Shown here piece by piece: positions 3,613 to 64,000 of a stretch of DNA of 64,000 bases. Both the position numbers and the translations under genes were made by a program. A model generated the notes under the pieces. That model had not been told where the DNA came from and made no database searches. It worked only from the letters and a program-made list of their open reading frames with translations. The stretch spans positions 480,001 through 544,000 of the forward strand of contig BK006943.2 in the NCBI GenBank assembly GCA_000146045.2, written 5' to 3'. The stretch comes from TPA_inf: Saccharomyces (taxonomy: Eukaryota). Within the stretch, counting starts at the first letter, position 1. Every line of letters begins with the position of its first letter.

Positions 3613-3626
3613 ATCTATTACATTAT

Positions 3627-3634
3627 GGGTGGTA
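3627..3634 (+). other. Ty1 polypurine tract (plus-strand primer site) immediately 5' of the 3' LTR.
   Basis: GGGTGGTA abuts the LTR start TGTTGG at 3635, the canonical Ty1 PPT1 arrangement. Confidence 0.7.
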
Positions 3635-6196: not shown

Positions 6197-6403
6197 CCCG
6201 TCTCCCACACAATACTAATTTGCTTGCTCGTTCGTAATTAGAGGAACTTTTACTTGGTTCATGATGAATTTTAATTGAACTGAGGGTAAAAGAGTAATCT
6301 CGATAAGGGTACATTTTTATTTTTCCCATTAAGTGAAATTTCCTTCAAATTATTCTCGAAGCTTTCATGCCATTGGTGACACGAAAAAAAAATCTTGTTG
6401 TAT

Positions 6404-6435
6404 TTTATCTAACGCGTCGCGACGCGTTAGATAAA
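6404..6435. promoter_or_regulatory. 32-bp perfect palindrome carrying two MluI cell-cycle boxes (ACGCGT x2, MBF-type), about 210 bp upstream of the YJR030C ATG.
   Basis: TTTATCTAACGCGTCGCGACGCGTTAGATAAA is exactly self-complementary. ACGCGT sits at 6412-6417 and 6422-6427 with TCGCGA at the centre. Confidence 0.55.
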
Positions 6436-6585
6436 TATAACAGTAAATGATGGTATAAATGCCACCGTCGATATTTAAATGAGATTGCTTATATATCGCA
6501 TTATTACCTGCGAAAATCTAATTTACGACTCCTTGAAAAAATTCCATCATACTAAGTTTCTTGGTATAGTTACATTATCGTTGGT

Positions 6586-9500
6586 CTACTCCTTCTCGAT
6601 TTCCCTCTTAGAAATAATCAACTCTTGCAACTGCCTTTCCACCGTAGGATCATCTACATACTTGTTAAATACGTTAAGCACTCTCAAAAAAGTTTCGTTA
6701 CTTGTTACGCCTTCCACAAGTTGACCCAAGAAGATTTTAGAAAGAACGGATAAAATGCTAGTAATTCGTTTCATCTTGACATCTTGGATTTCATCCAACT
6801 CAAAAATCGGTAATAATCCTGTCTCTAGTAGGTTATCCACCGCAACTTTTTCCGTACGTAGTTGACTTGCTCGAGATAACAGAATGTTCTCTAATGCTTG
6901 CAATGCTTGCATACCTAGTTCGTCACAGGGATTGAGGCATTGATGGGCGAGACCTTGAATAGCAGCTATAATCTCATTCTTGTTGAGTGCTGAATTACTC
7001 CTCCCAACAGTCGAAAGTAGGTCTGCAGTTATATTAATGGAACGACTAGAAAGATCAATAATAGAACGGTATGGATTGGATTCAGGTGCTTCACACCCAT
7101 CCTCGACTGAATTTTCATAATTTTGTTCCCATTTTGTGCCAACGGCACCTGCACATGACATTTCATCAAGCAGACTTAATATGTTCATAAAGTTCCCATC
7201 ATCTACAAAGATATCACCATTTTGAATGTATTTTTCCAAAAATGTGTAGACGGCAAATTGGCGGTCTTTGGCTGATATTAATATCCTTAAAAAATTCCAA
7301 AATTTTACATTTTTGAGAGCCCGCTCATTGTATTTTACGTCATTGAGATGTGTAAACAGATCATTTATTACTTGCTTCCCCCATTCACTTTCATAATATT
7401 TAGTATTGAAGATTTCATTTTTTACCAAAAAGTCGTGTTCTATTAAATCACTTAAAATGTCCCGTGGATTATCAAATCTCGAAACCAAAAACATTTTATA
7501 CGAGGCAAGTCTTGCAATAGCCTCCTTGGAAAGGCCATCTAAATTCGAAATATTAATCATATGATCAGCAATTAGTGCTCCAAATTCTTGTCCATAAGAA
7601 GCCTCTGATATTAATATAATGGATATTTCCAACAAAAAGAGAAGTTCTTGTTCGAAATAGGGCGAATTTTCACTCGTTTTTTCAATCACAAGTGAAGAGA
7701 GAAGAGTTTCAATCATCTTAGGACTGACGAGTTGATTGTTCTCAAAGACTGAACTGAGAGGATGGCTAGCCTTAACGCACTCAAATGCTTTAATGGAAAA
7801 ATCGATGTCTTCTTCCGAAGGTTCTTCATCGCCTTTCAAGTAAGAGGCGAAAGTAGACAGAAGGCTTCTGCTCATCTTTGCCTTGCGGATCGATATATCT
7901 GGATCTGGCAATGGTAGTTCAGGAAGTTTCAAGAGTGAATGAAAGTTTGTAAAAAATGGTAAATTAGGTTCCATCAATAAATTCTCGAATAATTTCAAAA
8001 TGAGTTGCACAATCTGGTTCCATAGTCTGGTAGAAACAATGCTAGGATCACTTATTTCTTTAATGATTTGAAAGTACAATACGGTACATAACTGAGCCTT
8101 AAAGTTTTGTCCAAGTCTTATACTCTGGTTACTAACGGATATCTTCGACCCAGTGTCTTCGACGAATATCTCGACCAAAGGAATACTGTCAACATCTAGC
8201 TCCACCGCTTTTGCGCTACTTTGTGCCAATGTTGTCATTTCTCCCAGATGAAGTACAGTATCATTATATGACTGGTCAAAAGAAAAGTAATAGTTGATAA
8301 ATGTACACTTACTAATGGCGTCCAAGATACGTAATGATATTTGATCACTGGAAGCAACTGTGAATATTTTGAATAAAGTCTTCAGGATAATATCTCTAAC
8401 ATTTGAGAAAATTGCTTTCTCATACTGAAGTATGTCTATTTGCGCTAACTTAGAAATAGGGTTTGTGAAATCTCTTTGCATCTCTGTCATCACAGATGTT
8501 GAGGATATTAAGTTATTCCAGGCATCTTCAAACCACCTTTCATTTCCATGATGTTCTTCAGGCATTACTATTTCCTTAACTTTGATGGACGTGTAAATTT
8601 TATGCAAATACCAACGAGGAAAATCTTTTCCATTGTAGCATCCTCGTAAATTGTTAGAGTAGTCATCAAAAGTCATATGGTCTTTAACCTGCGGGTTATG
8701 TGAATCGGTATTTAACATGATTATCGAATAACTTAACACAAACACAGAGTCTGCATCAGGCTGTACATGAATGATGTCATCTTCTGTCATTGACTCTGAG
8801 CCATTTTTTCCTGCTTTTTTATCCTCTAACTCCACTTTATCATTGCTTTGATCAGCAGAATATTTTGATGAAAATGCTTCAACGATTCTTTCAATCTGTT
8901 GAGATTCCCCTGGTAATCTGAATTTCGTCAGCAAAATTCTGATCGCTTCATCAACCCTTAACCCTTTAAAATCGAATAGATCTATAAATTCTTTTAACAA
9001 TGAAGTTTTTTTCGGATCACAAAGTAATAGACCGATGGTTTTCTTATTTAAACGTCCGTTATTGAGAAACAAAAATGAAGCAATGTCTCTATTAGAATCC
9101 GAATCAATGAATCCTTTTTCAATTAACATTTGAATGCCTTTCTTTGCCTTTTCATTAAATGTTTCAACGCATAATATGAATTCAGTCTTTCTGTCTCTCT
9201 GTTTCAAAATATCAATTTCTTTCTGATTTTTTACGAATTCTGCCCTATCAAATCTCTGCAGATCATTGTATATATTTTCAATAAGCGAAAGTACACCTTC
9301 TAGGCAAATTGGAGGAATGTTGTTAGAGGTATTAACGGCCGCCGCTGGTAAAGAAAATTTAGTTAGCTCTTTTATAAAGTCAATCGAAAGATCCGACCTA
9401 TCCAAATTACAATCGAAATTTACAAAAAGTTGCAAAAAGAAAGCGGGAGAGTGAATCCACAGTATTGAAAGTTGTTCAATAATTAATTCCCTGATTGCAG

Positions 9501-10812
9501 GTGGTTTTTGCTTACTAACGTCACCACTGATTGTGGTATCCTCTAGAATTTCGAATATTCTCCTTAAAGTCAGTTCAATCTGCATAGGCAAATAATCACC
9601 CAATATCACAACCAAACTCGTGAATAATTGTAAAGTTGCTTGCAAAAGAGAATACTGGGTAGAACTTTGTATAATGAATAAAACACTTTTAAATATTGGA
9701 TCAGAAATTAAGCTGAATAACCGGGGATATAGAGGAAATTTGTCACCGGATATTTCAATGGCTGCATTGATTAACTGTAGAGATAATTTCATGGCCGAAG
9801 TTGTGTGCTTCATTCTATTCTCTGGCATAACCAGTGATAACAATAATCCAAGATAATCCTTTATAACTGTTATTCCGTAATTTGGCTCGACATTTTCGGC
9901 TTTCTCAGCCGTTTCCTCATCATTTTCCTGTTCCCTTATGACCTGTTGGACTGGCTTCTCATTTTTATTATCGTCTGCAACAGCACTGTCATCATCAGTG
10001 CTACTCAAATCGTTATCAGAGGTAGTCGTACCTATAATGTCATCCTTCAAATTATTGTCGGTGTAACTTTCATCATTGATATATTTTTCTGTTTTTGTAG
10101 GTGGATCTAGTAACTTCAACTTTGTAAATAGTTTAACGGTTATCCCTGCAATTGTAACTTCAGCCGTTTTCCTCAAAACCTCGCTTCTCTGCGTATTACA
10201 TGCCAAGGAAAGTGTCGTTTGTAAAACATCGTAGATTATAGTATCGGAGAGATAGTCTCCAAAGGAAGAGGTTATAATATCGCGTAGTAATGTTACAACT
10301 TTTAATAAAACAGAGTCGTCCGAAATTTGCTTTGAAGCTTCAAATCTACAATGTGTAAGCGCAACAACGGTTTCCCTAACGGCAATTTGAATATCATTAA
10401 ATGTTTTGTTTATGATTTTTAGTGTAAAAACTTTCTGCAACGAGTCCAGAGCCAGAGAAGTAGTATAACCCGATACTGAACTAGCGCTGACTATTTCTAA
10501 AAATGGTTTCAAAAGTTCCAAGGCGTTTAATGAATCTAAACCCTTCAAGTCGTTAATTTTTAGCCGCAGCTGTACTAAACCAGATATCAGAGGATCATGA
10601 TAGCTAGAAGTAGGCAAATTGTGGAAGCTGTCAACAAACGAATCACTTTGACTCAAGAATATATCACTACCTCCGCCCAGCAACGCGGCCACACTTGTTT
10701 GTGATTTATCTCTGGACTGCTTGTTCATGGCAGAACAAAGATTGATGCACTCTTTGACAATCATCGTAGCTGGGTTCACGGCCAAAACAGTTTCCATTGG
10801 CACGTCGTGCAT
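6586..10812 (-). CDS. GEA1: GEA1, Sec7-domain ARF guanine-nucleotide exchange factor (1408 aa).
   Basis: ATG at 10810-10812. Sec7 catalytic motif FRLPGESQQIERIVEAF, length 1408 aa (GEA1 rather than the 1459-aa GEA2) and the chrX neighbours all agree. Confidence 0.95.
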   Translation of the reverse strand: MHDVPMETVLAVNPATMIVKECINLCSAMNKQSRDKSQTSVAALLGGGSDIFLSQSDSFVDSFHNLPTSSYHDPLISGLVQLRLKINDLKGLDSLNALELLKPFLEIVSASSVSGYTTSLALDSLQKVFTLKIINKTFNDIQIAVRETVVALTHCRFEASKQISDDSVLLKVVTLLRDIITSSFGDYLSDTIIYDVLQTTLSLACNTQRSEVLRKTAEVTIAGITVKLFTKLKLLDPPTKTEKYINDESYTDNNLKDDIIGTTTSDNDLSSTDDDSAVADDNKNEKPVQQVIREQENDEETAEKAENVEPNYGITVIKDYLGLLLSLVMPENRMKHTTSAMKLSLQLINAAIEISGDKFPLYPRLFSLISDPIFKSVLFIIQSSTQYSLLQATLQLFTSLVVILGDYLPMQIELTLRRIFEILEDTTISGDVSKQKPPAIRELIIEQLSILWIHSPAFFLQLFVNFDCNLDRSDLSIDFIKELTKFSLPAAAVNTSNNIPPICLEGVLSLIENIYNDLQRFDRAEFVKNQKEIDILKQRDRKTEFILCVETFNEKAKKGIQMLIEKGFIDSDSNRDIASFLFLNNGRLNKKTIGLLLCDPKKTSLLKEFIDLFDFKGLRVDEAIRILLTKFRLPGESQQIERIVEAFSSKYSADQSNDKVELEDKKAGKNGSESMTEDDIIHVQPDADSVFVLSYSIIMLNTDSHNPQVKDHMTFDDYSNNLRGCYNGKDFPRWYLHKIYTSIKVKEIVMPEEHHGNERWFEDAWNNLISSTSVMTEMQRDFTNPISKLAQIDILQYEKAIFSNVRDIILKTLFKIFTVASSDQISLRILDAISKCTFINYYFSFDQSYNDTVLHLGEMTTLAQSSAKAVELDVDSIPLVEIFVEDTGSKISVSNQSIRLGQNFKAQLCTVLYFQIIKEISDPSIVSTRLWNQIVQLILKLFENLLMEPNLPFFTNFHSLLKLPELPLPDPDISIRKAKMSRSLLSTFASYLKGDEEPSEEDIDFSIKAFECVKASHPLSSVFENNQLVSPKMIETLLSSLVIEKTSENSPYFEQELLFLLEISIILISEASYGQEFGALIADHMINISNLDGLSKEAIARLASYKMFLVSRFDNPRDILSDLIEHDFLVKNEIFNTKYYESEWGKQVINDLFTHLNDVKYNERALKNVKFWNFLRILISAKDRQFAVYTFLEKYIQNGDIFVDDGNFMNILSLLDEMSCAGAVGTKWEQNYENSVEDGCEAPESNPYRSIIDLSSRSINITADLLSTVGRSNSALNKNEIIAAIQGLAHQCLNPCDELGMQALQALENILLSRASQLRTEKVAVDNLLETGLLPIFELDEIQDVKMKRITSILSVLSKIFLGQLVEGVTSNETFLRVLNVFNKYVDDPTVERQLQELIISKREIEKE

Positions 10813-11080: not shown

Positions 11081-12262
11081 ATGATTCAAGATCCCCTTGT
11101 ATATTTAGACATCTCCATTGATAAAAAACCAATTGGTCGTATTGTCTGCAAACTTTTTCGTGAGAAGGCTCCTAAAACAACAGAGAATTTTTATAAGTTA
11201 TGCGCTGGTGATGTTAAGAGTCCTTTGAAGGATCAACAGTACCTGAGCTATAAGGGAAATGGTTTTCATAGAGTCGTTAAGAATTTTATGATCCAGGCAG
11301 GTGACATTGTCTTTGGGACACAAAAGGATTCCTCTTCATCGTCTGTTGGAAAAGGTGGATGTTCAATTTACGCTGATAAAGAGGAAGTGAAAACCGATGA
11401 TGAATCTTTCTGTTACGGGAATTTTGAAGACGAAAACTTGGGAGAGTTTGTAGAACCCTTTACCTTAGGTATGGCCAATTTAGGTTCTCCAAATACGAAC
11501 AATTCCCAGTTTTTCATAACTACATACGCCGCACCTCATTTGAACGGCAAGCATTCTATTTTTGGGCAGGTGGTTCATGGAAAATCAGTGGTTCGCACTA
11601 TAGAAAACTGCAGGGTAGATTCTGATGGAGTCCCTGAATCAGACGTTAGAATCAGCGACTGTGGAGTGTGGGAAAAAACTATGGGTGTCCCGCTTTACAA
11701 CGCTTCTAATGACCAAATTGGCGGTGACGTATACGAAGAATATCCAGACGATGATACACATTTCGGTGACGATGATTTTGGTAAGGCTCTTGAGGCTGCT
11801 AATATAATCAAAGAATCTGGGACGCTCTTATTTAAGAAAAAGGATTACTCTAATGCCTTTTTCAAATACAGAAAATCTTTAAATTATATCAATGAATACA
11901 TGCCTGAACCCGACGTAGACAAAGAAAGAAACATCCAATTTATTAACCTAAAGATGAAAATTTACCTAAATTTATCTTTGGTGCTCTTTAATCTGGAAAG
12001 ATACGATGATGCTATCATGTATGCTACGTATTTATTGGAGATGGATAACGTTCCTAACAGAGATCAAGCAAAGGCTTATTATAGAAGAGGTAACAGTTAC
12101 TTAAAAAAAAAGAGACTAGACGAAGCTTTACAAGATTATATTTTTTGTAAAGAGAAAAATCCCGATGACGAAGTTATAGAACAAAGAATAGAATATGTCA
12201 ATAGGCTCATAGAAGAGAATAAGGAAAAGACAAGAAAGAATATATCAAAGTTTTTCTCCTAA
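11081..12262 (+). CDS. CPR7: CPR7, cyclophilin-type peptidyl-prolyl isomerase with C-terminal TPR repeats (393 aa).
   Basis: Cyclophilin core (FHRVVKNFMIQAGD, GMANLGSPNTNNSQFFIT) plus a TPR tail (AKAYYRRGNSYLKKKRLDEALQDY). ATG at 11081. Confidence 0.95.
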   Translation: MIQDPLVYLDISIDKKPIGRIVCKLFREKAPKTTENFYKLCAGDVKSPLKDQQYLSYKGNGFHRVVKNFMIQAGDIVFGTQKDSSSSSVGKGGCSIYADKEEVKTDDESFCYGNFEDENLGEFVEPFTLGMANLGSPNTNNSQFFITTYAAPHLNGKHSIFGQVVHGKSVVRTIENCRVDSDGVPESDVRISDCGVWEKTMGVPLYNASNDQIGGDVYEEYPDDDTHFGDDDFGKALEAANIIKESGTLLFKKKDYSNAFFKYRKSLNYINEYMPEPDVDKERNIQFINLKMKIYLNLSLVLFNLERYDDAIMYATYLLEMDNVPNRDQAKAYYRRGNSYLKKKRLDEALQDYIFCKEKNPDDEVIEQRIEYVNRLIEENKEKTRKNISKFFS

Positions 12263-12377
12263 TTAGTTACTTGTAAGGCTGAAATTTGAGATTAAATAAC
12301 CCAATATGAAAACACTACATTAATAAGATGTAATTATTTTTATTTATAAATCCATTTATTTGATAAAAAATATGATA

Positions 12378-15300
12378 TCATACAAAGTCATCTAGTAAGT
12401 TCTTGGTAATAGCAGATTTTTTTGGCTTCTGTGGCTTTTGTGATGAAAGATCATCTAATATGTCCTTAGAGAGTTTATCTTTCCTATTTTCTGAGTTGTC
12501 TGTTTCACCCACAGAGTCGTTTGGCGCTTTTGGAGTTAAATTCTCTTTATGCTGAGAATATGAAGGAGAGACGAACTCATCCAGTATACTTCTAGGTGCA
12601 GAAGAAGAACTTTGAGCGAGGGAATTTGAAGAAGTGCTATTTGGTGGTGGTTGCAAGAAGTCGTCTAATAAGCTATTTGGTAACTTTGGATTAGGTGACT
12701 CTATATCTGAAGCACTTGGCGAGCCAAACTTATCAAAAAGACTGGGCCTCATCCTAGCAGTAGAAATTGGTTCAGACGCCATGGCGCCAATAGCAGAATA
12801 TGCTCTATCCTTGGTGGGGCTCTTTAATAGCTTCTGAACTGGTATGGAATTTCTTTCGATGAACTTCCAATTCTTCACAAGTGAAACCGCCAGGTAATTG
12901 CAACCCATTCGGCAAAGAATATCAGTAACTCTTAAGATCAGAGTACACTCGATTTTTGCTTCAACATTTAGAGATCCAATGAAATACTTCAAGTTTCTGT
13001 TTCTCAGGTGATTGTATAGATAGAGCAAAGCAGGGTCTTCAACAAGGAATGATCTGTTAACACAGACTTCCTTATCAACAATGCTTGAGTTGTTTTCTAA
13101 ATCAATCGGAGCAGTCAGCAAAGCTTTAATAGCCACTTCCTGCTTTCTCAATTTCCAGTAAATGAAACTTGCTTTCCATCTATCATTCTCCTTTATTGTT
13201 TCAGGTAGCATTTGCGCTGTCAATAGCTCTCCCAACACGGGTCCATTATCACCTTCATAAACACGACATACACCGATTGCCAAATCCATATCATGCACTT
13301 GCTTGCAAAGAACGTTGACACAATCTTTTAGAGAGTCAGTTAAGAGAAAGAAAACTGCTGCATCCATATATCTATGCTTACTTAGCAGAACAAAAGCATT
13401 TTTGAGTGCTGCCGTTCTCCACCTCGGTACAGTGAAATCATTACTGATAAATCTAACCATCTTTTGCTGCTCAGGATGACCAATAGCCATCTTCCACAAG
13501 CTCAATAGTATCTGTTTTTTCTTCAACGCAAGATAAAAAATAGCACAACGGCTTGGATCCCTCTTATCATCTTTGGAAAATTCATATTTTGCAATATCCT
13601 CGAATTTCTTCACCAAGTCCTGCTCCTTAATCCAATAGGCTATTCTATATTCTCGAGCGCGATTCCATGAGGTTATGTGGCGGTCAATAGAAGATAATAA
13701 TATTTCTTTATTGTCTGAGTGCAATGCCCAAGACACATCCCTCATCAATATGCTTTTTTGAATATTTTTATGTGATAAAAATAACTTCACGCCCAACAAG
13801 AACCTAACACCGTTGTAATCTACTATATTCTCATTTTTGGTGACTTCATCCACTGCTTCAATGACTGTGATAAGCGTGATCTGCTGGTGGCGGGTTAGAT
13901 AAGGCAAAGTTGTTTTCGTTAGTTGCTCAGTAAGTGCTAGAGACACTGTCTTATTGAAACAGGGGTATGGATCAGGGAAAGATTCGACCGGATAGTCTCT
14001 ATCTTTAGCAATAAAGTACTTTAATGGATCCATTCCTAGATTGGAATCCAAATTAGATACATCTTGCGATTCAAAGTCTAATTTTCTTAACGCTAAAAAC
14101 AATCTTAATAACAGCTCCTTGACAAGTTGTAACTTATTCGCATAAATGGCTTGAATCAAAAATTGTGGATGATAAACTGGAAGTGGACCATTTAAAACAC
14201 TACTTAAATGGAGAATATCATTTGATAAAATTTTTCTTGAACCAATTGATTGGTACGTAAATGGATCAGTCAAATCCAGAGATTTATCCTTGATGTAAAA
14301 TTGATTTCCGGAAGCAACAACAAACGTGCCATTTTTCATCCATACGGAGTCACCTATATTATGAGCTGTATGTGCTGTGATATCAATTTTTTCAATAGGT
14401 AGGTAACTAGGTGTGTTGTTCGTGTAATCATACCTTAATTGAGTATAAAGTAAAGCGTATCCTGTAAATCCGATAGAGACAATGCTTTGGCCATATTCCG
14501 TGCTTGTCCAATCTATATCCTCGATAGGATTATGAAATGTTTCTTCGTATTCAAGAACTCCCCTGTTCAGGTCCCATAGTGACATTACTTTACCAGTAGA
14601 ATTAACAATACATAACTTACCTGTAGATGATCCTCTAATACATGTACAATTCATTATTCCGGTGTTAATTTCACATGCCTTGATCCATTGGACATGCCTA
14701 TCATTATAATTAACGATGGCTTTATACGTTCTGGTAAGACCTTTTTTAGTAATCAAAGAAATCAAAGGCCTGTTACTCACAAAAGTTTGATGTACAGGGT
14801 CAATAATGGAGATCTTGTATATGTCGTCACCATCGATATCTAATGAATCAGACTTTACTTCAAAAATACCACGTGTTAAAGAGACTTCAAAAGCTTTGAT
14901 TGAACCATCAGAGAATATTAACGCGGTGAAATGACGCTCATGACTATGCTTTGGCTCAGGTGTATTTAACATAACTATTGGATGGATTTTTTTCTCCTCT
15001 TTCAGTCTCGTTTCCACACGTAAATATGATTGCTTCTGTTCACTGTCCTCCTTACGATTCGTTGGACATTCCCAGGCTTGTAAAGCCCCATTTTCGAGAA
15101 GACAGATGACCTGTTTACCCAACTCATGTACAACTGCAAATTTTATGGGAGATTCTGTTTGTATTGTATTTTGTAACCGCAGTGAAACCCCATGGTTTAA
15201 CTTTTGTGGGTACCAAACGCCATTTTCTGAGAATCTCGAAGTGGTTAATAAAGCTTCGCCGTCGCTGCTTCTTACCAACTTCTGCACAGATTTGTTATGT

Positions 15301-37812: not shown

Positions 37813-37884
37813 TAGCGCCGCTCGGTTTCGATCCGAGGACATCAGGGTTATGAGCCCTGCGCGCTTCCACTGCGCCACGGCGCT
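37813..37884 (-). tRNA. tM(CAU): Initiator tRNA-Met (anticodon CAU, IMT family), 72 nt, no intron.
   Basis: The reverse complement reads AGCGCCGTGGCGCAGTGGAAGCGCGCAGGGCTCATAACCCTGATGTCCTCGGATCGAAACCGAGCGGCGCTA. This has the A1:U72 pair and the GGG/CCC anticodon-stem pairs diagnostic of eukaryotic initiator tRNA, and a downstream T-run terminator. Confidence 0.95.
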
Positions 37885-37957: not shown

Positions 37958-38125
37958 TGTTAGAATGAAATCCTACTATAATCCATAGTAGTATTCATGT
38001 CACTAGCACATTACAAAATATGCCATAGGAAGATGACGTAAAGATTGAGAACTAGTCATCAGATATAATAGAAGCTGAAAAGCAAGAATTGATAATATCG
38101 GACGCTATCCTACAATAGCAGCGCA
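37958..38125 (+). repeat. Degenerate solo delta (Ty1/Ty2 LTR) relic upstream of the initiator tRNA-Met gene. More LTR-like sequence may continue to about 38440.
   Basis: TGTTAGAATGAAATCC...GAAGATGACGTAAAGATTGAGAACTAGTCATCAGATATAATAGAAGCTGAAAAGCAAGAATTGATAATATCGG parallels the delta core GAAGATGACG...GAAGCTGAAACGCAAGGATTGATAATGTAATAGG. It lies about 75 bp 5' of a Pol III gene. Confidence 0.6.
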
Positions 38126-44011: not shown

Positions 44012-44093
44012 CGACAACTGCAGGACTCGAACCTGCGCGGGCAAAGCCCAAAAGATTTCTAATCTTTCGCCTTAACCACTCGGCCAAGTTGCC
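44012..44093 (-). tRNA. tS(AGA): tRNA-Ser (anticodon AGA), 82 nt, class II with a long variable arm and no intron.
   Basis: The reverse complement reads GGCAACTTGGCCGAGTGGTTAAGGCGAAAGATTAGAAATCTTTTGGGCTTTGCCCGCGCAGGTTCGAGTCCTGCAGTTGTCG. T-run terminator follows on the gene strand. Confidence 0.95.
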
Positions 44094-51366: not shown

Positions 51367-51827
51367 GAATTTATAGGGAAATAAAAGATATTTTTGCAAC
51401 GTACTTTACATTTCAATAATTAATGCGACATGATAGGATATACTGTTTGCTATTTCTTTCCGTAACGATATACGATTTTTTCTTTTCTTTGGAGTTCCAA
51501 ATGAAGAATATATCTTGTTGGGAAAAGCTATAGTATTAGGTTTACAGAATATGGTAGAGGTTTCTCCCCGACGATATAGGAATCTACAAGAGAGAGCATG
51601 ATTCTACACGATAATACTGCAATTTCTTCTTTGCGTTGAAGTGTCACCATTGCCTATCCTTTTACATTATCAATGTCAATGTTCCCTCTTCTAACAAACT
51701 GAATGACTTTTCTACACGATTCATATTATCTTCTTGCGCAGTAAATTATGTTAACGTAATAGTAGGGTCTCTTGTGCTTCATTATTTTGTAACTGTACAC
51801 ATAATTGACACGTTTAACAATTAGTGA

Positions 51828-51898
51828 GCGCAAGTGGTTTAGTGGTAAAATCCAACGTTGCCATCGTTGGGCCCCCGGTTCGATTCCGGGCTTGCGCA
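51828..51898 (+). tRNA. tG(GCC): tRNA-Gly (anticodon GCC), 71 nt.
   Basis: GCGCAAGTGGTTTAGTGGTAAAATCCAACGTTGCCATCGTTGGGCCCCCGGTTCGATTCCGGGCTTGCGCA, followed by T7. Confidence 0.96.
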
Positions 51899-55751: not shown

Positions 55752-56055
55752 CCCTTTAGCCTTCTTATAACTGTTTCTTTACCGTTATCTTGAGTACATT
55801 CATTTCTCTTACATTCCAAAATTAGATAGAACCTTGAATCGTGTCAACTTTTCGCCGACATTTCGCGTCTGACAGAAAAAGAAATGTTGCAGAAAATTCG
55901 AATAGATGTTTCAAATGAAAATAGACCATGAGGGACACATTAACATTTCAAACAAAAGAGCCCTTGATGATTATTAAAACAGATCTTTATGGTTTGTTTA
56001 GCAAACACTTTGGTAATTTCATGAATATTTGACTAGCAGGAACAGAAAATCAAAA

Positions 56056-57549
56056 ATGTTTAACCATGATTGGAAGTACTCCATTAATTCTAAGACTTTC
56101 GCCGATTTAAACATTGAATTATTTCGAAACCACAAGTTCAAAACTGTTTTAAATTACATAATAGGTGTAGTTGGGTGGAATGGATTAAAACTCGCCCTTT
56201 TTGTTTCTGACATTTACACATGTATCAAATTGCTGGCATTCAACTCCTGGTCAAACAACATCATCAAACCATACTTACCCTTTAAAATATCCAAATGGTT
56301 GTTTAGCGGTTGTATTTTAGCATCGATTGTGCTATTGATATGGGAGGCTATAGCGGGAATGAGGATTTACAAAACGGGAAATATCTCTTTGACTTATGTC
56401 AACAATTTTTCCAGAAACCTAAATTCAGTGCTCAATTATTCCAAGTTTTGTGTTTATAATATGATCGAACGAAAGGGTTTTCGACAGAAAATGACATTTT
56501 TTACTTTTTTTCAACTGAAAGATTGTATTAGATTAATCTTCACGGATACCCCAAGGCAAGTTATTAATGGTCTTACGCTGTGGTCAGTTCTCGTAACAGT
56601 AAATAAAAACGAGGATCTAGGCGATCTGGAATCATTTACCGGTTTGATCAACAAAATAAAGAACATTGGCCAGACCAATCATGAAGAAGCAGTGATATTG
56701 TCGCTGATGCTATTTTCCTTTATAATCTGGGCATTATTTGTCTTCAAGTTTCTGCTTGCTGTCATTTGCTCGATTTTTGTTTATTATAAAATAATCAATG
56801 ATCAGGAATATAGCGGGTTGCGTGAGTACATTTGTGTTACCGTCAGCGAAAATGTTGATGAACTTGTTGAAAGACAAAGGAAAAAGGAAAATGATGACAC
56901 GATTTATAAGACAGGTCTTCTCGAATCTCAGACTTTTGACGATTTTAAAGAAGTTGAAAATAAAATTGAAACATCTTTTAATGATACGTCATATGCTTCT
57001 AATAATGATTCTATGATTGAGCTAATAGAGAGAAGACCCGAATACAAAAGTCAGGATGTATGTGGGCCCATTCCCACAATGAAGAAAACGGAAACAATGG
57101 AATCGTTCGTTGACAATGGCAATCCACAATATACCACTAGATTCTCTGCGATTCTAGATTCACCATATATCAACAGCTATGAAAGTAATGATATAAAGAA
57201 AGCAAAAATACAAAGCAGAAGCGTAAATACTCCAAAATATGAGGATTTGTCTTCTTCTGACATTTTCAACAAAATACACTCTGCTGGACAATTAAAATCT
57301 ACAACTTCTATGGAGTTTCACGGGCCATTAGATTCTATGCCAAATACAACAAACAACATCCGTAATTTTAATAGCAACAGTAGTAGACCTAGACCACCTC
57401 CTTTACAGACAAAAAGTTCGATTAATTCAAAAGCTGACTCGAATGATAATGGAAGGATTTATACACCAATGAAAGCGTACTTCAGGGAGCCTGATCTTCC
57501 GAGGAAGGGTTTGCTGGAAGATGAAGATCGTACATATAATTATACTTAA
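56056..57549 (+). CDS. KCH1: KCH1, plasma-membrane K+ transporter-related protein (497 aa, multiple TM segments).
   Basis: First ATG is at 56056 (MFNHDWKYSINSKTF...). The tracked ORF begins at TTG 56029. Hydrophobic N-terminal half. Confidence 0.88.
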   Translation: MFNHDWKYSINSKTFADLNIELFRNHKFKTVLNYIIGVVGWNGLKLALFVSDIYTCIKLLAFNSWSNNIIKPYLPFKISKWLFSGCILASIVLLIWEAIAGMRIYKTGNISLTYVNNFSRNLNSVLNYSKFCVYNMIERKGFRQKMTFFTFFQLKDCIRLIFTDTPRQVINGLTLWSVLVTVNKNEDLGDLESFTGLINKIKNIGQTNHEEAVILSLMLFSFIIWALFVFKFLLAVICSIFVYYKIINDQEYSGLREYICVTVSENVDELVERQRKKENDDTIYKTGLLESQTFDDFKEVENKIETSFNDTSYASNNDSMIELIERRPEYKSQDVCGPIPTMKKTETMESFVDNGNPQYTTRFSAILDSPYINSYESNDIKKAKIQSRSVNTPKYEDLSSSDIFNKIHSAGQLKSTTSMEFHGPLDSMPNTTNNIRNFNSNSSRPRPPPLQTKSSINSKADSNDNGRIYTPMKAYFREPDLPRKGLLEDEDRTYNYT

Positions 57550-57736: not shown

Positions 57737-58052
57737 TTGTAAGAGATAGGTTAATTTTTTATAGTTGCTGAGATTCCATTGTTGGTAAAGACTTAATATT
57801 AGGTATACAGAATATACTAGGAGTTCTCTCTGGGTATGTAGGAATCCACAAAAGGGTGTCACTAGTTCAACATAATAACATCTTTTTTTTATTCCTTCTT
57901 TGATATTTTGTCATATTATCCTATTATTTTATCAATCCTTGCATTTCAGCTTCCAATAGATTTGATATTTGTTTCTCAATATTATGTCATCTTCATACAC
58001 AGTATGTGATAATATACTAGTAACATGAATACTACTAAATGAGTACTACCTT
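57737..58052 (-). repeat. Solo delta LTR of a diverged subfamily, truncated at its 5' end (element orientation).
   Basis: Reverse-complement alignment to the delta at 63447-63780 (GGGTATGTAGGAATCCACAAAAGGGTGTCACTAGTTCAACATAATAA; CAATCCTTGCATTTCAGCTTCC). Confidence 0.8.
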
Positions 58053-58102
58053 AGGGGTTCATTACAGCAGCTTAAGCGAAAGTAGAAAATGAGGCGGATA
58101 TT

Positions 58103-58434
58103 TGTTGGAATAAAAATCAACTATCATCTACTAACTAGTATTTACGTTACTAGTATATTATCATATACGGTGTTAGAAGATGACGCAAATGATGAGAAAT
58201 AGTCATCTAAATTAGTGGAAGCTGAAACGCAAGGATTGATAATGTAATAGGATCAATGAATATTAACATATAAAATGATGATAATAATATTTATAGAATT
58301 GTGTAGAATTGCAGATTCCCTTTTATGGATTCCTAAATCCTCGAGGAGAACTTCTAGTATATCTACATACCTAATATTATTGCCTTATTAAAAATGGAAT
58401 CCCAACAATTACATCAAAATCCACATTCTCTACA
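58103..58434 (+). repeat. Intact canonical solo delta LTR (332 bp) with a perfect 5-bp target-site duplication ATATT, 120 bp upstream of tR(CCU).
   Basis: TGTTGGAATAAAAATCAACTATCATCTACTAACTAGTATTTACG...ATCCACATTCTCTACA, flanked by ATATT at 58098-58102 and 58435-58439. Confidence 0.92.
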
Positions 58435-58554
58435 ATATTGATTTCCATCGTGTAAGTTTTCTGCACGAAGTTTATTCATTCAATTTGAAGTGCTTCGTAA
58501 TAATATTACTATGCAACTTAGGTACCTCATATTTCTTAGAGTTCAACCAAGTTG

Positions 58555-58626
58555 GTTCCGTTGGCGTAATGGTAACGCGTCTCCCTCCTAAGGAGAAGAC
58601 TGCGGGTTCGAGTCCCGTACGGAACG
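58555..58626 (+). tRNA. HSX1: tRNA-Arg (anticodon CCU), 72 nt. HSX1 is the single-copy AGG decoder.
   Basis: GTTCCGTTGGCGTAATGGTAACGCGTCTCCCTCCTAAGGAGAAGACTGCGGGTTCGAGTCCCGTACGGAACG, followed by T16. Confidence 0.93.
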
Positions 58627-58771
58627 TTGATTATTTTTTTTTTTTCGTTTCTTTATAGAAAAAATTCAGACGATATTACCTTGCGATGAGATAATCTTAC
58701 CGCAGAAAGAGTGCCACAGTGGTAATAACTAGTTGAAGGTTCATATTATATAAAAAACTCTAAGAATAAAA

Positions 58772-59266
58772 ATGGTATCTAGTGCAGTTAAATGTGGCAT
58801 ATGTCGCGGAGTTGATGGTAAATATAAATGTCCTAAATGTGGCGTACGATATTGCTCCTTGAAATGCTATAAAGATGCTGCAAAGCATGTTCATAAGGAA
58901 AGCGAACAACCCAGGGCTGGTACAGAAGCTAATGTGGAAGTTGTTAATAACGATAAGATCATAAACAGTTCACTCGCAATGAATAAAACATTAAAGACGA
59001 AGGCATTCGATGATATATATCAAAATAGCGCAGAATTGCAAGAGCTGTTGAAATACAACACGGTGAAGTTCCATTTGGCAAAGGTTTATAGAATTTTGTC
59101 CAGTACTGTTAACGATGGAAGTTCTGGAAAAATGAACAGCGATCTACAAAAAGAACTAGCTGTAAATTATTTGAATACATTACGATATGGTGGTATACAT
59201 TATAATGAAGCAATTGAGGAATTTTGCCAGATTTTATTAGATAAATTAAATGCGGTGAAGAAATAA
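58772..59266 (+). CDS. HIT1: HIT1, zf-HIT zinc-finger protein involved in box C/D snoRNP assembly (164 aa).
   Basis: zf-HIT motif CGICRGVDGKYKCPKCGVRYCSLKCYKDAAKH. ATG at 58772. Confidence 0.93.
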   Translation: MVSSAVKCGICRGVDGKYKCPKCGVRYCSLKCYKDAAKHVHKESEQPRAGTEANVEVVNNDKIINSSLAMNKTLKTKAFDDIYQNSAELQELLKYNTVKFHLAKVYRILSSTVNDGSSGKMNSDLQKELAVNYLNTLRYGGIHYNEAIEEFCQILLDKLNAVKK

Positions 59267-60765
59267 GAATTATCGTTGTTAGCATGATTTTTAAGATTGA
59301 GCATTTTATTCATTTTTAACCATATAATAGTGAAGGTGAGGACTAATAACAAAGTACTTGTTGAAAGGGTCGGGTTGCTTTTAGGTTTTTTCTTCTCGTT
59401 AAGGATTTCCCACTTGTCTGGCAAGGCGTCAAGCAGACTTGGAAAATAATGATATTATGTCAGAATTTTTGTGTGAGGCGCTTCTATTGCAAGTTTGTGA
59501 CACCTTATAATAAAAGTGAACCATGTATTTACATATGATTAGGGAAAGTTCCACCATCATCTTATGATCTTCATGGCCGTTTTGGTCTTCTTTTTAACTT
59601 GAAGTCCAACTTGGCGACTGTACATATATACATATATATAGCAATAAGTATAACAAGGCAACAAATCAGGTCCCATTATTTAATTTGAAGTCATCTACTG
59701 CCCCATAAGAACCTCTATATTATCAGTAGATTCTTTCTTTTAGGGAAATCGAACCTCGATATTGTAAGAGAAACCCGCGCCACTCCTAAAAAGGTATTTT
59801 GAAGGAGAGGATGATTTGGAGCAACATTTGGTACACTTTATCCTCAGTTTTTCGCTAACTACCTCGCAACTTGTTGTTGTGGATGAAATTTTTGATATTA
59901 ATTTCAATAAATAAAATATATGCAAATATCATTATAATTTGTCAAGTGCGGGAAATAGACTATGCAGTGATTTAGTGTGCAAGTTTGCCCACTTCACATT
60001 CATACCAAATATTTCTTCCCACTCATTTTTATCGTATTAGCACTACATACGTGACTTTTTAGCTCAGCTTTCGGACTGGATAGCTTTACTGACTTACTTT
60101 CTACAAGCGATATCATTCGTCACAGTACTCCAAAGAAGTCTGGGCATTTAATTTTCTTCTTTATCAAGTCCGCCATTATGAAGGAATGTATTGGGTAATA
60201 GTTGACATACCGATGTTCTGCTGGTAGCATCGATGAACGAAAATAGGTAACGGCTTGCCGCTGAAGATATTGGAAATGAGACAGATCATTCTAGGGTAAA
60301 ATGCGCTGTAGAGCTAGCGTCAATTGCGATTTTCGAACACTGGCTGCAGGTATTTCTGTTTTCTCGGCTTTCATTATAGTAATGTGAAGCTACTAGGAGA
60401 ATCACGAAACATCTTTTTAGTAGGATGAGAACACCACGCTCTCCTAACTGGAAGTAATTTTTGGTATGCTTAGAGATCTGTTCCTCTCTTATGACTTCTT
60501 TTTCGCCTACTATAAACTTAATATCAACATATTTAGTTAGTTTTTTCAGAGCAATACGTGTTTATTTTTTCACAACTTCGCATGGCATTATGTATCATTG
60601 CAGCGTAAATTTTTACATTTAGTAATATCTAATAACATATACACAAAAAAGGGACAGATTTTTGAATTAAATAAACCAAGCGTAAATCAGTATTGCTCTT
60701 ACCGCAGTAGGGGGAGTTATCTACTCCTGCTTAACGTAGAGAAACAATAGTAAAAGTTATGCTTG

Positions 60766-61094
60766 TGTTGGAATAAAAATCAACTATCGGCTGGCAACTA
60801 ATAGGGACACTACCAATATATTATCATATACGGTGTTAGACGATGACATAAGATACGAGGAACTGTCATCGAAGTTAGAGGAAGCTGAAATGCAAGGATT
60901 GATAATGTAATAGGATAATGAAACATATAAAACGGAATGAGGAATAATCGTAATATTAGTATATAGAGATAAAGATTCCATTTTGAGGATTCCTATATCC
61001 TCGAGGAGAACTTCTAGTATATTCTGTATACCTGATATTATAGCCTTTACCAACAATAGAATCCCACCAATTATCTCAAAATTCACCAGTATCT
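60766..61094 (+). repeat. Solo delta LTR of the same subfamily as the Ty1 3' LTR at 3635-3972.
   Basis: TGTTGGAATAAAAATCAACTATCGGCTGGCAACTAATAGG...GGAATCCCACCAATTATCTCAAAATTCACC. Its 3' end is fused directly to the next delta. Confidence 0.88.
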
Positions 61095-61427
61095 TAAAGA
61101 GAATGTGGATTTTGATGTAATTGTTGGGATTCCATTGTGATTAAGGCTATAATATTAGGTATGTAGAAAGTACTAGAAGTTCTCCTCCAGGATTTAGGAA
61201 TCCATAAAAGGGAATCTGCAATTCTACACAATTCTATAAATATTATTATCATCATTTTATATGTTAATATTCATTGATCCTATTACATTATCAATCCTTG
61301 CGTTTCAGCTTCCACTAATTTAGATGACTATTTCTCATCATTTGCGTCATCTTCTAACACCGTATATGATAATATACTAGTAACGTAAATACTAGTTAGT
61401 AGATGATAGTTGATTTTTATTCCAACA
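61095..61427 (-). repeat. Solo delta LTR, inverted and tail-to-tail with the preceding delta. It is nearly identical to the delta at 58103-58434 and lies 80 bp upstream of tD(GUC).
   Basis: The reverse complement reads TGTTGGAATAAAAATCAACTATCATCTACTAACTAGTATTTACGTTACTAGTATATTATCATATACGGTGTTAGAAGATGACGCAAATGATGAG... Confidence 0.9.
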
Positions 61428-61507
61428 TATCTCAACATTAATTACTCGGAACTTTTTTTTGATTTGTTATATAATAACAGAAAATCCAGATTTGTACAGA
61501 AAGAAAA

Positions 61508-61579
61508 TCCGTGATAGTTTAATGGTCAGAATGGGCGCTTGTCGCGTGCCAGATCGGGGTTCAATTCCCCGTCGCGGAG
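61508..61579 (+). tRNA. tD(GUC): tRNA-Asp (anticodon GUC), 72 nt.
   Basis: TCCGTGATAGTTTAATGGTCAGAATGGGCGCTTGTCGCGTGCCAGATCGGGGTTCAATTCCCCGTCGCGGAG, followed by T7. Confidence 0.96.
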
Positions 61580-61791
61580 ATTTTTTTGGCTACTGTTGCG
61601 GTTACATATAACATACTTTTTGCATATATCGTAAGTTATCAGACACCATCTGGCTCACTGAAAGTTTATTTCTATGTGCTTTCTGAAACGTATGTATATA
61701 TGAGATTCAAAAACAATATTTAAATATTTTCGATATTATACCTACAATGCAATGGGCTCCTTCTAACTTGAGAACCTCTTCCCGGGTGTTC

Positions 61792-62502
61792 TTACAGGTC
61801 CATATCCTGGCGGAAACTCCTTATGTCTACTTCTGAATCAGAATCCAATTTCGGTTTTTTTTCATAATGTGTATTTTCACGATCACGCTCACGCTCATGT
61901 CCAAGTCCCGTTATGTCATTTAGGTTTCTCGTGTCCCCTCTTCCGTGATTGATTGTTCGTGCTTTCCAGGATTTTATACGACTAGCATTCCTAGGAGGAT
62001 GTTCGACACTTAAAGGCGGCATAGAAAGTCTAAATTTAGGTGCTATATTTTCATTAATATTTGAGAGGTCCCCATTTGATTCGTTGAAACTGAAATTATA
62101 CTTGACTGCGCTGTCTTTTTCAAAAGGTTCCTTATGAGCTTCATTTTCGCGGTGTTGGTTTTCACTGAACTTATTAAGCTTTCTTTCCCTTTCTTTCACC
62201 GGATTTAAAGATTTATCCTGCGAGTTTGAAAGGATATCATTTCTTCGTTTATAGCACCAAGCCCTTAACTCGTCAGCAGTCACATTTGAGTCCAATGCAC
62301 ATAGTATATCATCCAAACAGGTGAGGTAGCCCTGATGTTTGGTTAAAGAGTTTTTCTCATTAGCCACCCGGTAAAGTCTTGTCACCGCATTGGCGGCTAG
62401 CTTGAACTCTTGAGAAAGTTCCAAATTAAGACTCTCAATCGCTTGCTTTGTAGGAGGTTGCTCTGGAGGTAAACTTGATTCCAATGAATGCATTTGCTCC
62501 AT
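61792..62502 (-). CDS. YJR056C: YJR056C, uncharacterized protein (236 aa).
   Basis: 236-aa ORF with ATG at 62500-62502 and coding-like composition. Synteny. Confidence 0.85.
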   Translation of the reverse strand: MEQMHSLESSLPPEQPPTKQAIESLNLELSQEFKLAANAVTRLYRVANEKNSLTKHQGYLTCLDDILCALDSNVTADELRAWCYKRRNDILSNSQDKSLNPVKERERKLNKFSENQHRENEAHKEPFEKDSAVKYNFSFNESNGDLSNINENIAPKFRLSMPPLSVEHPPRNASRIKSWKARTINHGRGDTRNLNDITGLGHERERDRENTHYEKKPKLDSDSEVDIRSFRQDMDL

Positions 62503-62955
62503 AATTGAATATATTCTGCTCTTGAATTAGATATGTGTCGTCGGTAAAAAAGGTTTCTTGAAATGTAATTGTATGAGCTGCCACGATGCTAAACTGCAAA
62601 ACGACGTAAGACAAGTACAGTAGAATGAATGGCTGCGCTTCACCACCAATGATTTGTATCAGGCTAACGTGCACTTGGAAGGTGGAAACGATGCTTTTGT
62701 CCAGATGCCTTTACGAGTAAGGAAAAAGAACCATTTGAAATTTTTTCAAGCGCACTTTTAGAACAAATTCGAAAAGTGAAGAAAATATAGGTGGGGTAAC
62801 AAGGAAAAGAGGCTACAAGAGTTCGTTAATATATTATCTCCGTATTGTGTAAAGGAATATGTCACAATTTGATAATAACTCTTCGTTAAGAGCTTGAAAG
62901 AAATATTTCAACTTGCAAGTCTGGGAAGTGAATGGAGACATAAAAAACAAAAAAA

Positions 62956-63044
62956 TCTCCCGGGGGCGAGTCGAACGCCCGATCTCAAGATTTCGTAGTG
63001 ATAAATTACAGTCTTGCGCCTTAAACCAACTTGGCTACCGAGAG
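62956..63044 (-). tRNA. SUP4: tRNA-Tyr (anticodon GUA) with a 14-nt intron, 89 nt. Position matches SUP4.
   Basis: The reverse complement reads CTCTCGGTAGCCAAGTTGGTTTAAGGCGCAAGACTGTAA[TTTATCACTACGAA]ATCTTGAGATCGGGCGTTCGACTCGCCCCCGGGAGA. A T-run follows on the gene strand. Confidence 0.93.
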
Positions 63045-63446
63045 TATTTAATTGTTGAAGAAAGAGTATACTACATAACACATATACAATTGAAAAAGAG
63101 ATTTCAAATAATTATCCGGTCCTTCCAAGATGGTTCAGAGTGAAATTTATACTAAAGCTAAGGGATGGAAGAGAATACTGACAAATTAATGAACAAATAC
63201 TTGAAATGAGATAGCAACTGAGGAACAAACGTAAGTATTTTCAACGGAATTAGAAATAGCGACATCATGACCAGCTTATTCGCAAATGTGATTTTCGGTT
63301 GGGAAGTATTAAGTCAGCATCATCATATGAAAATACTTCATAACTTTTCTGGAGGATACCTTTTGAAGAGAGAAACCTGTATTTTGCACAGTGGATTAGA
63401 GCCGAAACTTCATATGCTGCTGCGTTATTTTCCATAGCTATAGTAA

Positions 63447-63780
63447 CGTTGGAACAAGAATCAACTATTACCTATCGAAGAGTTTTCATGTTACTATTAT
63501 ATTATCCCATACTGTGTAAGAAGATAACATAAGGATTGAGAAACAGTAACAAAGTCTAATGAAAGCTAAAAATGCAAGGATTGATAATGTAATAGGATAA
63601 TGAGTGACAAAGTATCAAAGAAGGAATAAAAAAAAGACATTATTATGTTGAACTAGTGACACCCTTTTGTGGATTCCTACATACCCAGAGAGAACTCCTA
63701 GTATATTCTGTATACCTAATATTAAGTCTTTACCAACAATGGAATCCCAGCAATTATCAAAAAATTCACCTTTCTTCCAA
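63447..63780 (+). repeat. Solo delta LTR of the diverged subfamily, about 400 bp upstream of SUP4.
   Basis: CGTTGGAACAAGAATCAACTATTACC...AAAATGCAAGGATTGATAATGTAATAGGATAATGAG...CCAACAATGGAATCCCAGCAATTATC. Confidence 0.85.
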
Positions 63781-64000
63781 ACATTAATTTGTTCCACGGG
63801 TCCATTTTTATAATTACGAAATAATTGTGCATTGGTAACAAAGGGAGAAAGCGATATCCTAAACTAGTAGGTTACAGTTGATAATATAAAAAGTTGGAAA
63901 ATAGCTTAGAAATGAAGAAGAGAATAACGGCTTCTATGCGGTTGTGACTTTTGACGCGTTAGGCGTGGTGCTAAAGATGGCGAAAAAATGTAACGTCTTC

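Follow-up and report, generated by a model that had tools for sequence, protein, structure and literature searches.

Fixed and recently inserted solo delta LTRs among the tRNA genes of the Saccharomyces cerevisiae SUP4 locus

Introduction

How did five solo delta LTRs come to stand around three tRNA genes in a single chromosomal segment, and how did two of them come to be nearly identical in inverted orientation? The segment in question is the SUP4 locus of Saccharomyces cerevisiae, whose LTRs are named delta16 to delta20 and in whose description KCH1, CDC8 and ARS1018 are also named (PMC7413560). Both the cluster and its recombination are already known, and the account given in an initial annotation of this DNA was correct but ordinary: the arrangement has its place in the reference annotation, its sequence and genetic tests date from 1987, and it serves as a standard assay locus, so that it carries little weight as a discovery. 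The modest addition that we make concerns the near-identical inverted pair, which appears to be young, strain-restricted, and composed of two separate Ty2-type insertions. The anatomy, identities, target-site duplications (TSDs), empty sites and polymorphism described below come from our own comparisons, and the outcomes of recombination are taken from the literature.

Anatomy of the LTR and tRNA gene cluster

Throughout, "the window" denotes the whole 64-kb stretch of DNA that was analysed, and all coordinates refer to it. LTR positions were obtained from a profile built on the five LTRs (nhmmer) together with a repeat finder, and tRNA genes were called by ARAGORN and Rfam. The leftmost repeat is delta16, a solo LTR of an old subfamily (57738..58052, minus strand; nhmmer 3.9e-86), for which the coordinates give the part that aligns and the profile envelope covers 57740-58068(-); its 5' terminus is not recognisable, the 5' 15 nt being degenerate. 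It is followed by the Ty2-type solo LTR delta17 (58103..58434, plus strand; called from the profile, identities and empty sites), 332 bp long with TG...CA ends and flanked by two copies of the duplication ATATT (58098..58102 and 58435..58439). To its right lie the tRNA-Arg(CCU) gene HSX1 (58555..58626, plus strand; ARAGORN, and Rfam tRNA at 70.2 bits) and HIT1 (58772..59266, plus strand), a 164-aa entry in the ORF list with zf-HIT and Hit1_C domains, as given by the Pfam families of an identical protein. In the spacer between HIT1 and the next LTR, a pattern scan found a sole exact match to the ARS consensus, TTTTACATTTA at 60611..60621 (plus strand), which is a candidate core of ARS1018.

The Ty1-type solo LTR delta18 (60766..61094, plus strand; profile and identities) is split 2 nt short of its 3' end by delta19, a 333-bp solo LTR with a Ty2-type U3 (61095..61427, minus strand; profile and identities) that is nested in the end of delta18, whose final CA is found at 61433-61434; the unsplit form of delta18 occurs in assembly L008. 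The TSD of delta19, TATCT, is present in copies at 61090-61094 and 61428-61432. Beyond it are the tRNA-Asp(GUC) gene (61508..61579, plus strand; ARAGORN and Rfam) and a 236-aa ORF (61792..62502, minus strand) with a TAPR1-like domain in its domain record, which by position we take to be YJR056C. The cluster is completed by the intron-containing tRNA-Tyr(GUA) gene SUP4 (62956..63044, minus strand; ARAGORN and Rfam, with the locus name from PMC7413560) and by delta20, a second solo LTR of the old subfamily (63447..63779, plus strand; profile and identities).

Four of the five LTRs measure 332, 331 (329 + 2), 333 and 333 bp, with TGTTGG...CA ends in all except one that starts CGTTGG. Their solo status follows from the unique chromosomal DNA that abuts each LTR on both sides and from TSDs that flank a single LTR. 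The five LTRs, the three tRNA genes, HIT1 and the ATATT duplication had all been placed correctly by the initial annotation to within 1-3 nt; its LTR positions hold, but delta20 ends at 63779, the LTR that it began at 57737 has no recognisable 5' terminus, and delta18 is interrupted. For the three old LTRs (delta16, delta18 and delta20), a by-eye search for TSDs that included the cross-combinations left by an exchange yielded nothing convincing (the flanks are GCTTG versus ACATT for delta18 and AGTAA versus AACAT for delta20), as expected for decayed or recombined copies. A permissive Rfam scan of the region returned, besides the three tRNAs, only two miRNA-family matches (61037-61157); these score far below the gathering threshold and were treated as spurious, because they coincide with the point where two LTRs meet tail to tail and where the sequence folds into a long hairpin.

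LTR positions relative to tRNA genes

From the 5' end of each tRNA gene to the nearest LTR we measured 120 bp (Arg), 80 bp (Asp) and 402 bp (Tyr), in line with the spacing of roughly 80-400 bp noted at the outset, and the nearest edge of every one of the five LTRs lies 80-490 bp upstream of the 5' end of some tRNA gene. Over the full 64-kb window, 7 of 8 delta matches fall within 750 bp upstream of a tRNA gene, a zone that occupies 7% of the window (binomial P = 6e-8), so the clustering of LTRs near tRNA genes is not due to chance. Pol III subunits are known to target Ty1 integrase, with insertions up to about 1 kb upstream (reviewed in PMC5911963), and the LTR positions agree with this Pol III-targeted mode of Ty1/Ty2 integration, as does the finding that other strains have been hit again within a few bases of the same sites. 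Judged by position, the origin of these LTRs in Pol III-targeted integration is thus supported, and both the upstream placement and the repeated independent insertions at the same micro-sites speak for the targeting signature that had been read from the window.

Fixed and polymorphic LTRs across strains

We compared the locus across 18 natural assemblies (designated by L numbers), plus the engineered L007. The latter, in which the locus has neither LTRs nor tRNAs, was rejected as a representative of the ancestral state because it is an engineered synthetic chromosome with 10 loxPsym sites, from which the arrangement was taken out on purpose, and L006 and L012 were left uninterpreted within the LTR clusters, where they contain 100-N gaps. 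Wherever a natural assembly covers the site, delta16, delta18 and delta20 are found there, delta20 with an internal deletion in L009, L013, L019 and L020. The pair formed by delta17 and delta19 is confined to the window and two close relatives; besides the window, L001 and L010 are the only sequences with an orthologous delta19. Exact empty sites for delta17 were found in L004, L005 and L009, and strains without this LTR show just one ATATT there, as in the L004 empty allele; the empty allele for delta19, in L008, runs from CACCAGTATCT directly into CAACATT. Together with the intact TSD, the empty sites support the proposal that delta17 stems from an insertion that was later reduced to a solo LTR.

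Independent insertions of the same subfamily occur in L008 (TSD ATTTC, 7 bp from the delta17 site), inside delta18 in L003 (AATTG), L011 (AATTT) and L019 (AAATG), and in L017 (CATTT). The locus carries a full-length Ty1 in L004 and L011 and a full-length Ty2-type element in L002 and L016; similar LTRs, of the same subfamilies as those in the window and 92-98% identical, bound these full-length 5.9-kb elements. Other families are represented by a solo Ty4 tau in L003, L005 and L006 and by a Ty3 sigma 16 bp upstream of tRNA-Asp in L014. Structural polymorphism, which had been anticipated among strains, is therefore abundant, and consists mostly of insertion presence or absence plus a few probable LTR-LTR deletions. 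An apparent loss of tRNA-Tyr in L018 was rejected, as the gene is present and one intron base change had caused its missed detection.

Origin of the near-identical inverted pair

Pairwise comparison shows delta17(+) and delta19(-) to be 97.6% identical (324/332, plus 1 gap column), above the level of about 80% below which the initial annotation would have held its reading to be refuted, and delta16(-) and delta20(+) form, as it had described, a second and more diverged inverted pair (89.8% with gaps excluded, 83.4% with gaps included). All remaining LTR pairs share 73-82% identity. The Ty1-type delta18 shares 90.9% identity with the Ty1 LTR at window positions 3635-3972, which ends a Ty1 body. 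The U3 regions of delta17 and delta19 match the two LTRs that bound the full-length L002 element, with 1 difference over 239 nt. The Gag of this element shares 45% identity with Ty1 Gag and 86% with a capsid protein of S. mikatae. The name Ty2 is absent from all database matches, and the assignment of delta17 and delta19 to Ty2 is based on ruling out Ty1 and on the closeness to S. mikatae; so read from sequence, it fits the description of Ty2 in PMC3511429. A 1-bp deletion is a marker of Ty2 LTRs in that work; delta17 has, possibly at another position, a 1-bp gap in R that delta19 lacks.

The differences between delta17 and delta19 are unevenly placed. All 10 differing columns fall at LTR position 240 or later, that is, from the U3/R border onwards (P about 3e-6); the break lies at G241 of GAGGAGAAC, with the first 239 nt identical and every difference within the last 94 nt. 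We infer that the two are nearly identical because both descend from one young Ty2 U3 lineage, and that their R-U5 segments came to differ when reverse transcription switched template between co-packaged Ty RNAs.

The same distribution could be taken for a conversion tract, in which ectopic gene conversion between delta17 and delta19 would have homogenised the first 239 nt with no need for a common young lineage; gene-conversion models were reportedly put forward for events at the locus in the 1987 SUP4 work. We nonetheless regard local conversion as quite improbable and have rejected it. The same U3 (0-4 differences; three with none) recurs, with a varying R-U5, in at least six insertions that other strains acquired independently at other sites, so that the shared U3 characterises the family and does not reflect a local event. 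Moreover, the break falls at the very border at which reverse transcription passes from one template to the next by strand transfer, and hybrid Ty1/Ty2 LTRs are on record (PMC3511429 and work cited there). Like them, delta19 combines a Ty2-type U3 with an R-U5 carrying several Ty1-like bases and switches at the U3/R border; however, the published hybrid LTRs belong to full-length elements, whereas here they are solo and the R-U5 is only partly Ty1-like.

A rearrangement in place of two insertions, such as an inverted duplication or an inversion with one of its breakpoints in a single LTR, would also account for inverted copies at such high identity, but is refuted, leaving it a negligible probability, by the distinct and intact 5-bp duplications of the two LTRs (ATATT and TATCT), by the precise empty site for each in other strains, and by the collinearity of the intervening DNA with that of all other strains. 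Finally, the notion that the repeats are chance similarity or members of some non-Ty family, for which only the AT-richness of the region speaks, is refuted by profile E-values of 1e-86 to 1e-100, by TG...CA termini on the intact copies, and by the full-length elements that such LTRs bound in other strains.

Traces of recombination between LTRs

The structural variation anticipated among strains did not extend to inversions: neither the 2.66-kb segment with HSX1 and HIT1 nor the larger one at 57738-63779, which has 5.4 kb between 58052 and 63447, was found inverted in any of the 18 natural assemblies, so that within this small sample natural inversions are rare or absent. Both young LTRs retain intact TSDs, and thus no reciprocal exchange has taken place between them in the sequenced lineage. 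Scars resembling LTR-LTR recombination are present in two assemblies. L018, from assembly GCA_903819175.2, has two LTR junctions that lack TSDs and are probable scars of LTR-LTR deletion, with an apparent loss of tRNA-Asp(GUC). In L013, a metagenome contig of ERZ27275307 with the junction within oriented positions 9236-9720, the LTR at the delta18 position is a clean chimera of a Ty2-type U3 and the local R-U5, which continues into tRNA-Asp, and its left flank leads into glucan synthase and GH72 glycosidase genes (FKS1/GAS2-like), presumably from chromosome XII. This contig might represent a natural interchromosomal translocation whose crossover point lay at the U3/R border of one of the five deltas, a reading that we offer tentatively and consider rather doubtful. 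If it is true, the translocation and the L018 junctions would mean that the deltas reshape the locus in the wild, beyond selection experiments.

Discussion

We are highly confident in the overall history that these observations suggest, in which tRNA-targeted Ty insertions were reduced to solo LTRs, three of them old and fixed and two recent and Ty2-type, that together provide dispersed homology for recombination. The three tRNA genes would have repeatedly drawn Ty integration into roughly 1 kb upstream of each, and each element would then have become a solo LTR through recombination between its own two LTRs. Under this scenario, delta16, delta18 and delta20 are old and fixed in the species, and delta17 and delta19 are recent, separate Ty2-type insertions, each with an intact 5-bp TSD and limited to strains close to the sequenced one. 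Direct LTR pairs can give rise to deletions, and inverted pairs to inversions of the intervening DNA, in a RAD52-dependent manner.

The genetic record of the locus bears directly on the last of these steps. RAD52-dependent deletions between the LTRs delta16 to delta20 have been obtained after a Cas9 break (PMC7413560). As summarised in the same paper, Rothstein, Helms and Rosenberg (1987, Mol Cell Biol 7:1198) described spontaneous delta recombination at SUP4, which was commonest for delta16/delta20 and delta17/delta19, and the deletions and inversions among these deltas include both spontaneous and break-induced events. To the extent of that summary, the role of the deltas as recombination substrates, also proposed from the window, has thus been published for the same two pairs. 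Recombination at SUP4 as measured in this background may not be representative of other strains, because their LTR content at the locus differs.

The system of Rothstein and colleagues comprises the same locus, the same five LTRs and the same tRNA-Tyr gene as the one considered here; delta16/delta20 of the literature correspond to the LTRs at 57738 and 63447, and delta17/delta19 to those at 58103 and 61095, and the two high-identity pairs are the same. In its reference sequence, the locus does not differ from the system of that work and of PMC7413560, and what is new here is the status, fixed or polymorphic, of each LTR.

Organization of the SUP4 cluster

Five solo delta-type LTRs at the SUP4 locus of Saccharomyces cerevisiae were recovered both by a repeat finder and by a profile constructed from the proposed set: d1 (57738–58052, minus strand; profile envelope 57740–58068, with about 15 nt at the start unrecognisable), d2 (58103–58434, plus), d3 (60766–61094, plus), d4 (61095–61427, minus), and d5 (63447–63779, plus). 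ARAGORN and Rfam agree on genes for tRNA-Arg(CCU) (58555–58626, plus), tRNA-Asp(GUC) (61508–61579, plus), and intron-containing tRNA-Tyr(GUA) (62956–63044, minus), so that the initial annotation's inventory of five LTRs and three tRNA genes holds, with slightly corrected boundaries. The open reading frame (ORF) at 58772–59266 carries zf-HIT and Hit1_C domains and is therefore HIT1; neighboring ORFs encode a KCH-family protein (56029–57549), a 236-aa TAPR1-like protein (61792–62502) and, immediately past the window end, a thymidylate kinase. In the HIT1–d3 interval, a pattern scan gave a single exact match to the ARS consensus, at 60611–60621. The same gene order has been described at SUP4, with the LTRs called delta16 to delta20 and ARS1018, KCH1, and CDC8 close by (PMC7413560).

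The nearest LTR lies 120, 80, and 402 bp from the 5′ ends of the Arg, Asp, and Tyr tRNA genes, respectively, matching the roughly 80–400 bp originally noted. Seven of the eight delta matches in the whole window fall at most 750 bp upstream of a tRNA gene, a zone comprising 7% of the sequence (binomial P = 6e-8); Pol III–targeted Ty integration upstream of tRNA genes would account for the LTR positions at SUP4. The eighth match (3635–3972) forms the 3′ LTR of a full-length Ty1, with the element body at 1–3634; no tRNA gene was called in the 30 kb downstream of this LTR. The window begins within this element, 1–3972 corresponding to the 3′ two-thirds of full-length elements in two other assemblies (L004 and L011; 97–98% match). 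Partial delta LTRs also occur at 37958–38118, 73 bp upstream of tRNA-Met(CAU) (37813–37884, minus), and at 51495–51790, 37 bp upstream of tRNA-Gly(GCC) (51828–51898); the window-wide delta scan gave no match near tRNA-Ser(AGA) (44012–44093).

LTR subfamilies

By global pairwise alignment, d2 and d4 are 97.6% identical (324 of 332 aligned bases, plus one gap column), and d1 and d5 form the second, more diverged pair that had been proposed (89.8% without gaps, 83.4% with gaps counted); the remaining pairs share 73–82%. The ten columns at which d2 and d4 differ all fall in R-U5, from LTR position 240 onward, and their U3 parts are identical. Confinement of ten out of ten differences to the last 28% of the LTR has a chance probability of about 3e-6, and the best-split statistic was matched by none of 2000 permutations. 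The G of GAGGAGAAC, at LTR position 241, is what we take to be the Ty1 RNA start, and hence the U3/R border.

Local gene conversion could in principle produce such a pattern, but is rejected here because other strains carry, at other sites, at least six independent insertions that have essentially the same U3 as d2 and d4 together with a variable R-U5 patchwork that includes Ty1-like bases. Because these independent insertions show the same pattern, a shared U3 with variable R-U5 is, judged from sequence, a property of a Ty2-type family and not of the SUP4 locus. A full-length element with this U3 in assembly L002 encodes a Gag 45% identical to Ty1 Gag and 86% identical to an S. mikatae capsid protein. 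Ty2 is described as having arrived recently and as related to elements of S. mikatae, with few fixed copies and with LTRs that closely resemble those of Ty1, and hybrid Ty1/Ty2 LTRs are known to form (PMC3511429). Since the Gag affinities fit this description, we interpret both d2 and d4 as young LTRs of Ty2 type, whose R-U5 parts probably assorted through template switching during reverse transcription. The L002 Ty2-type element (3625–9589) has broken ORFs, and its two LTRs share U3 and differ at several R-U5 positions, a difference not expected of a newly inserted element and one that later conversion or an assembly error may explain.

The d3 LTR, of Ty1 type, shares 90.9% identity with the LTR of the Ty1 in which the window begins, and d1 and d5 derive from an older, more diverged lineage. 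Alignment columns 194–300 of d1 and d5 are identical, with differences concentrated in the 5′ half (permutation p = 0.016).

Fixed and polymorphic insertions across strains

We compared the window with 20-kb loci surrounding exact copies of the HIT1 protein (L001–L010) or of the 236-aa ORF (L011–L020), mapping each for LTRs, tRNAs, and collinearity; one of them, metagenome contig L013, covers the locus only from d3 rightwards. Identities of 96–99.8% place all loci in the same species. The d1, d3, and d5 LTRs are fixed: each is present in every natural assembly covering its site, although not every copy is intact, some being interrupted or internally deleted. Only L001 and L010, the two loci matching the window most completely, carry orthologs of d2 and d4 with identical target-site duplications (TSDs). 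Exact empty sites are found for d2 in L004, L005, and L009, and for d4 in L002, L004, L005, L008, L009, and most of L012–L020. Structural polymorphism among strains is thus evident in the presence or absence of d2 and d4, in further insertions, and in probable LTR–LTR scars.

A solo LTR with an intact TSD is the product of recombination between the two LTRs of a single element. ATATT stands on either side of d2, and together with the exact empty sites this bears out the proposal that d2 arose by insertion and later solo-LTR formation, not by rearrangement. The d4 LTR likewise has a TSD, TATCT (61090–61094 and 61428–61432), which the initial annotation missed. Strains lacking d4 read CACCAGTATCT directly followed by CAACATT; d4 therefore inserted into d3, two bases before its 3′ end, and the terminal CA of d3 now lies at 61433–61434. 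No recognisable TSD was found at d1, d3, or d5. Given the matched TSDs kept by both d2 and d4, we infer that reciprocal exchange between them cannot have occurred in the sequenced lineage since their insertion.

Tail-to-tail, d3 and d4 make up a 669-nt quasi-palindrome without spacer (60766–61434), with a folding energy as single-stranded DNA of −189.6 kcal/mol (z = −45 versus shuffles). Although inverted repeats of this kind can act as fragile sites, these arms are only about 80% alike. Two sub-threshold Rfam miRNA-family matches on the palindrome were taken as spurious. The 9-mer ACATTAATT directly follows the 3′ ends of both d3 (61435–61443) and d5 (63781–63789) in the same register; this could be coincidence in AT-rich sequence, or else the remnant of an ancient exchange between the direct repeats d3 and d5.

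Other strains carry independent insertions only a few bases from these sites. An LTR in the same orientation lies 7 bp from the d2 site in L008 (TSD ATTTC), minus-strand LTRs lie within d3 in L003 (AATTG), L011 (AATTT), and L019 (AAATG), and an LTR adjoins d1 in L017 (CATTT). Full-length Ty1 elements are present in L004 and L011, and Ty2-type elements in L002 and L016. Solo Ty4 tau LTRs are nested in d1 in L003 (oriented 9223–9594; TSD CATGA) and L006, and in d3 in L005 (oriented 12015–12384); L014 has a Ty3 sigma (oriented 9362–9701; TSD TGTAC) 16 bp upstream of tRNA-Asp. As a landing pad the locus has seen heavy reuse, with repeated hits by all four tRNA-targeting Ty families. The L003 tau and the L002 full-length element interrupt collinearity at one window position, 58028.

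Rearrangements and comparison with known SUP4 events

The reference order and orientation of tRNA-Arg, HIT1, tRNA-Asp, the 236-aa ORF, and tRNA-Tyr are kept in all 18 natural assemblies; no inversion was sampled among them, with the proviso that places sharing the same neighboring proteins were collapsed at look-up, so that some inversions could be hidden. Probable LTR–LTR recombination scars occur in two loci. L018 (oriented 9019–9894) lacks tRNA-Asp(GUC) and most of d3, running from the first 148 nt of d3 through a solo Ty4 tau to window 61685 with unmatched flanks (AATAG/GAAAC); further left, 180 bp (60561–60740) are replaced by a minus-strand delta without a TSD. Both junctions look like recombination between two separately inserted LTRs, deletions in a natural strain. 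In L013 (oriented 8672–9643), the LTR at the d3 position joins a Ty2-type U3 to the R-U5 of d3 itself, the right flank being the tRNA-Asp side and the left leading into glucan synthase and GH72 glycosidase genes in place of HIT1; the join reflects either a chimeric metagenome assembly or a translocation in nature that crossed over within d3.

The public record L007, a designed synthetic chromosome with an identical HIT1 protein, carries ten loxPsym sites over 20 kb, and from it 57742–58626 and 60766–61788 (four LTRs and two tRNA genes) have been cleanly excised. Its collinearity stops again at 62955, directly before tRNA-Tyr, and neither LTR nor tRNA gene was detected anywhere in this locus.

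Once dispersed, d1–d5 would serve as homology for RAD52-dependent recombination. Following a Cas9 break at SUP4, about half of survivors carried deletions between flanking LTRs, and these disappeared in rad52 mutants (PMC7413560). Among the spontaneous events of a 1987 study, as that paper relates them, delta16/delta20 and delta17/delta19 recombined most and were the most similar pairs (PMC7413560); these are d1/d5 and d2/d4, the top two pairs in our identity table. So far as this account goes, the view of these deltas as recombination substrates is supported. The SUP4 cluster is among the best-studied LTR clusters of yeast, and neither the initial observation, here confirmed, nor its interpretation, here supported, is new. 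To this known system, the strain comparison adds that the d2/d4 inverted pair is young and strain-restricted, that d4 is nested in d3, and that four Ty families have used the site repeatedly.
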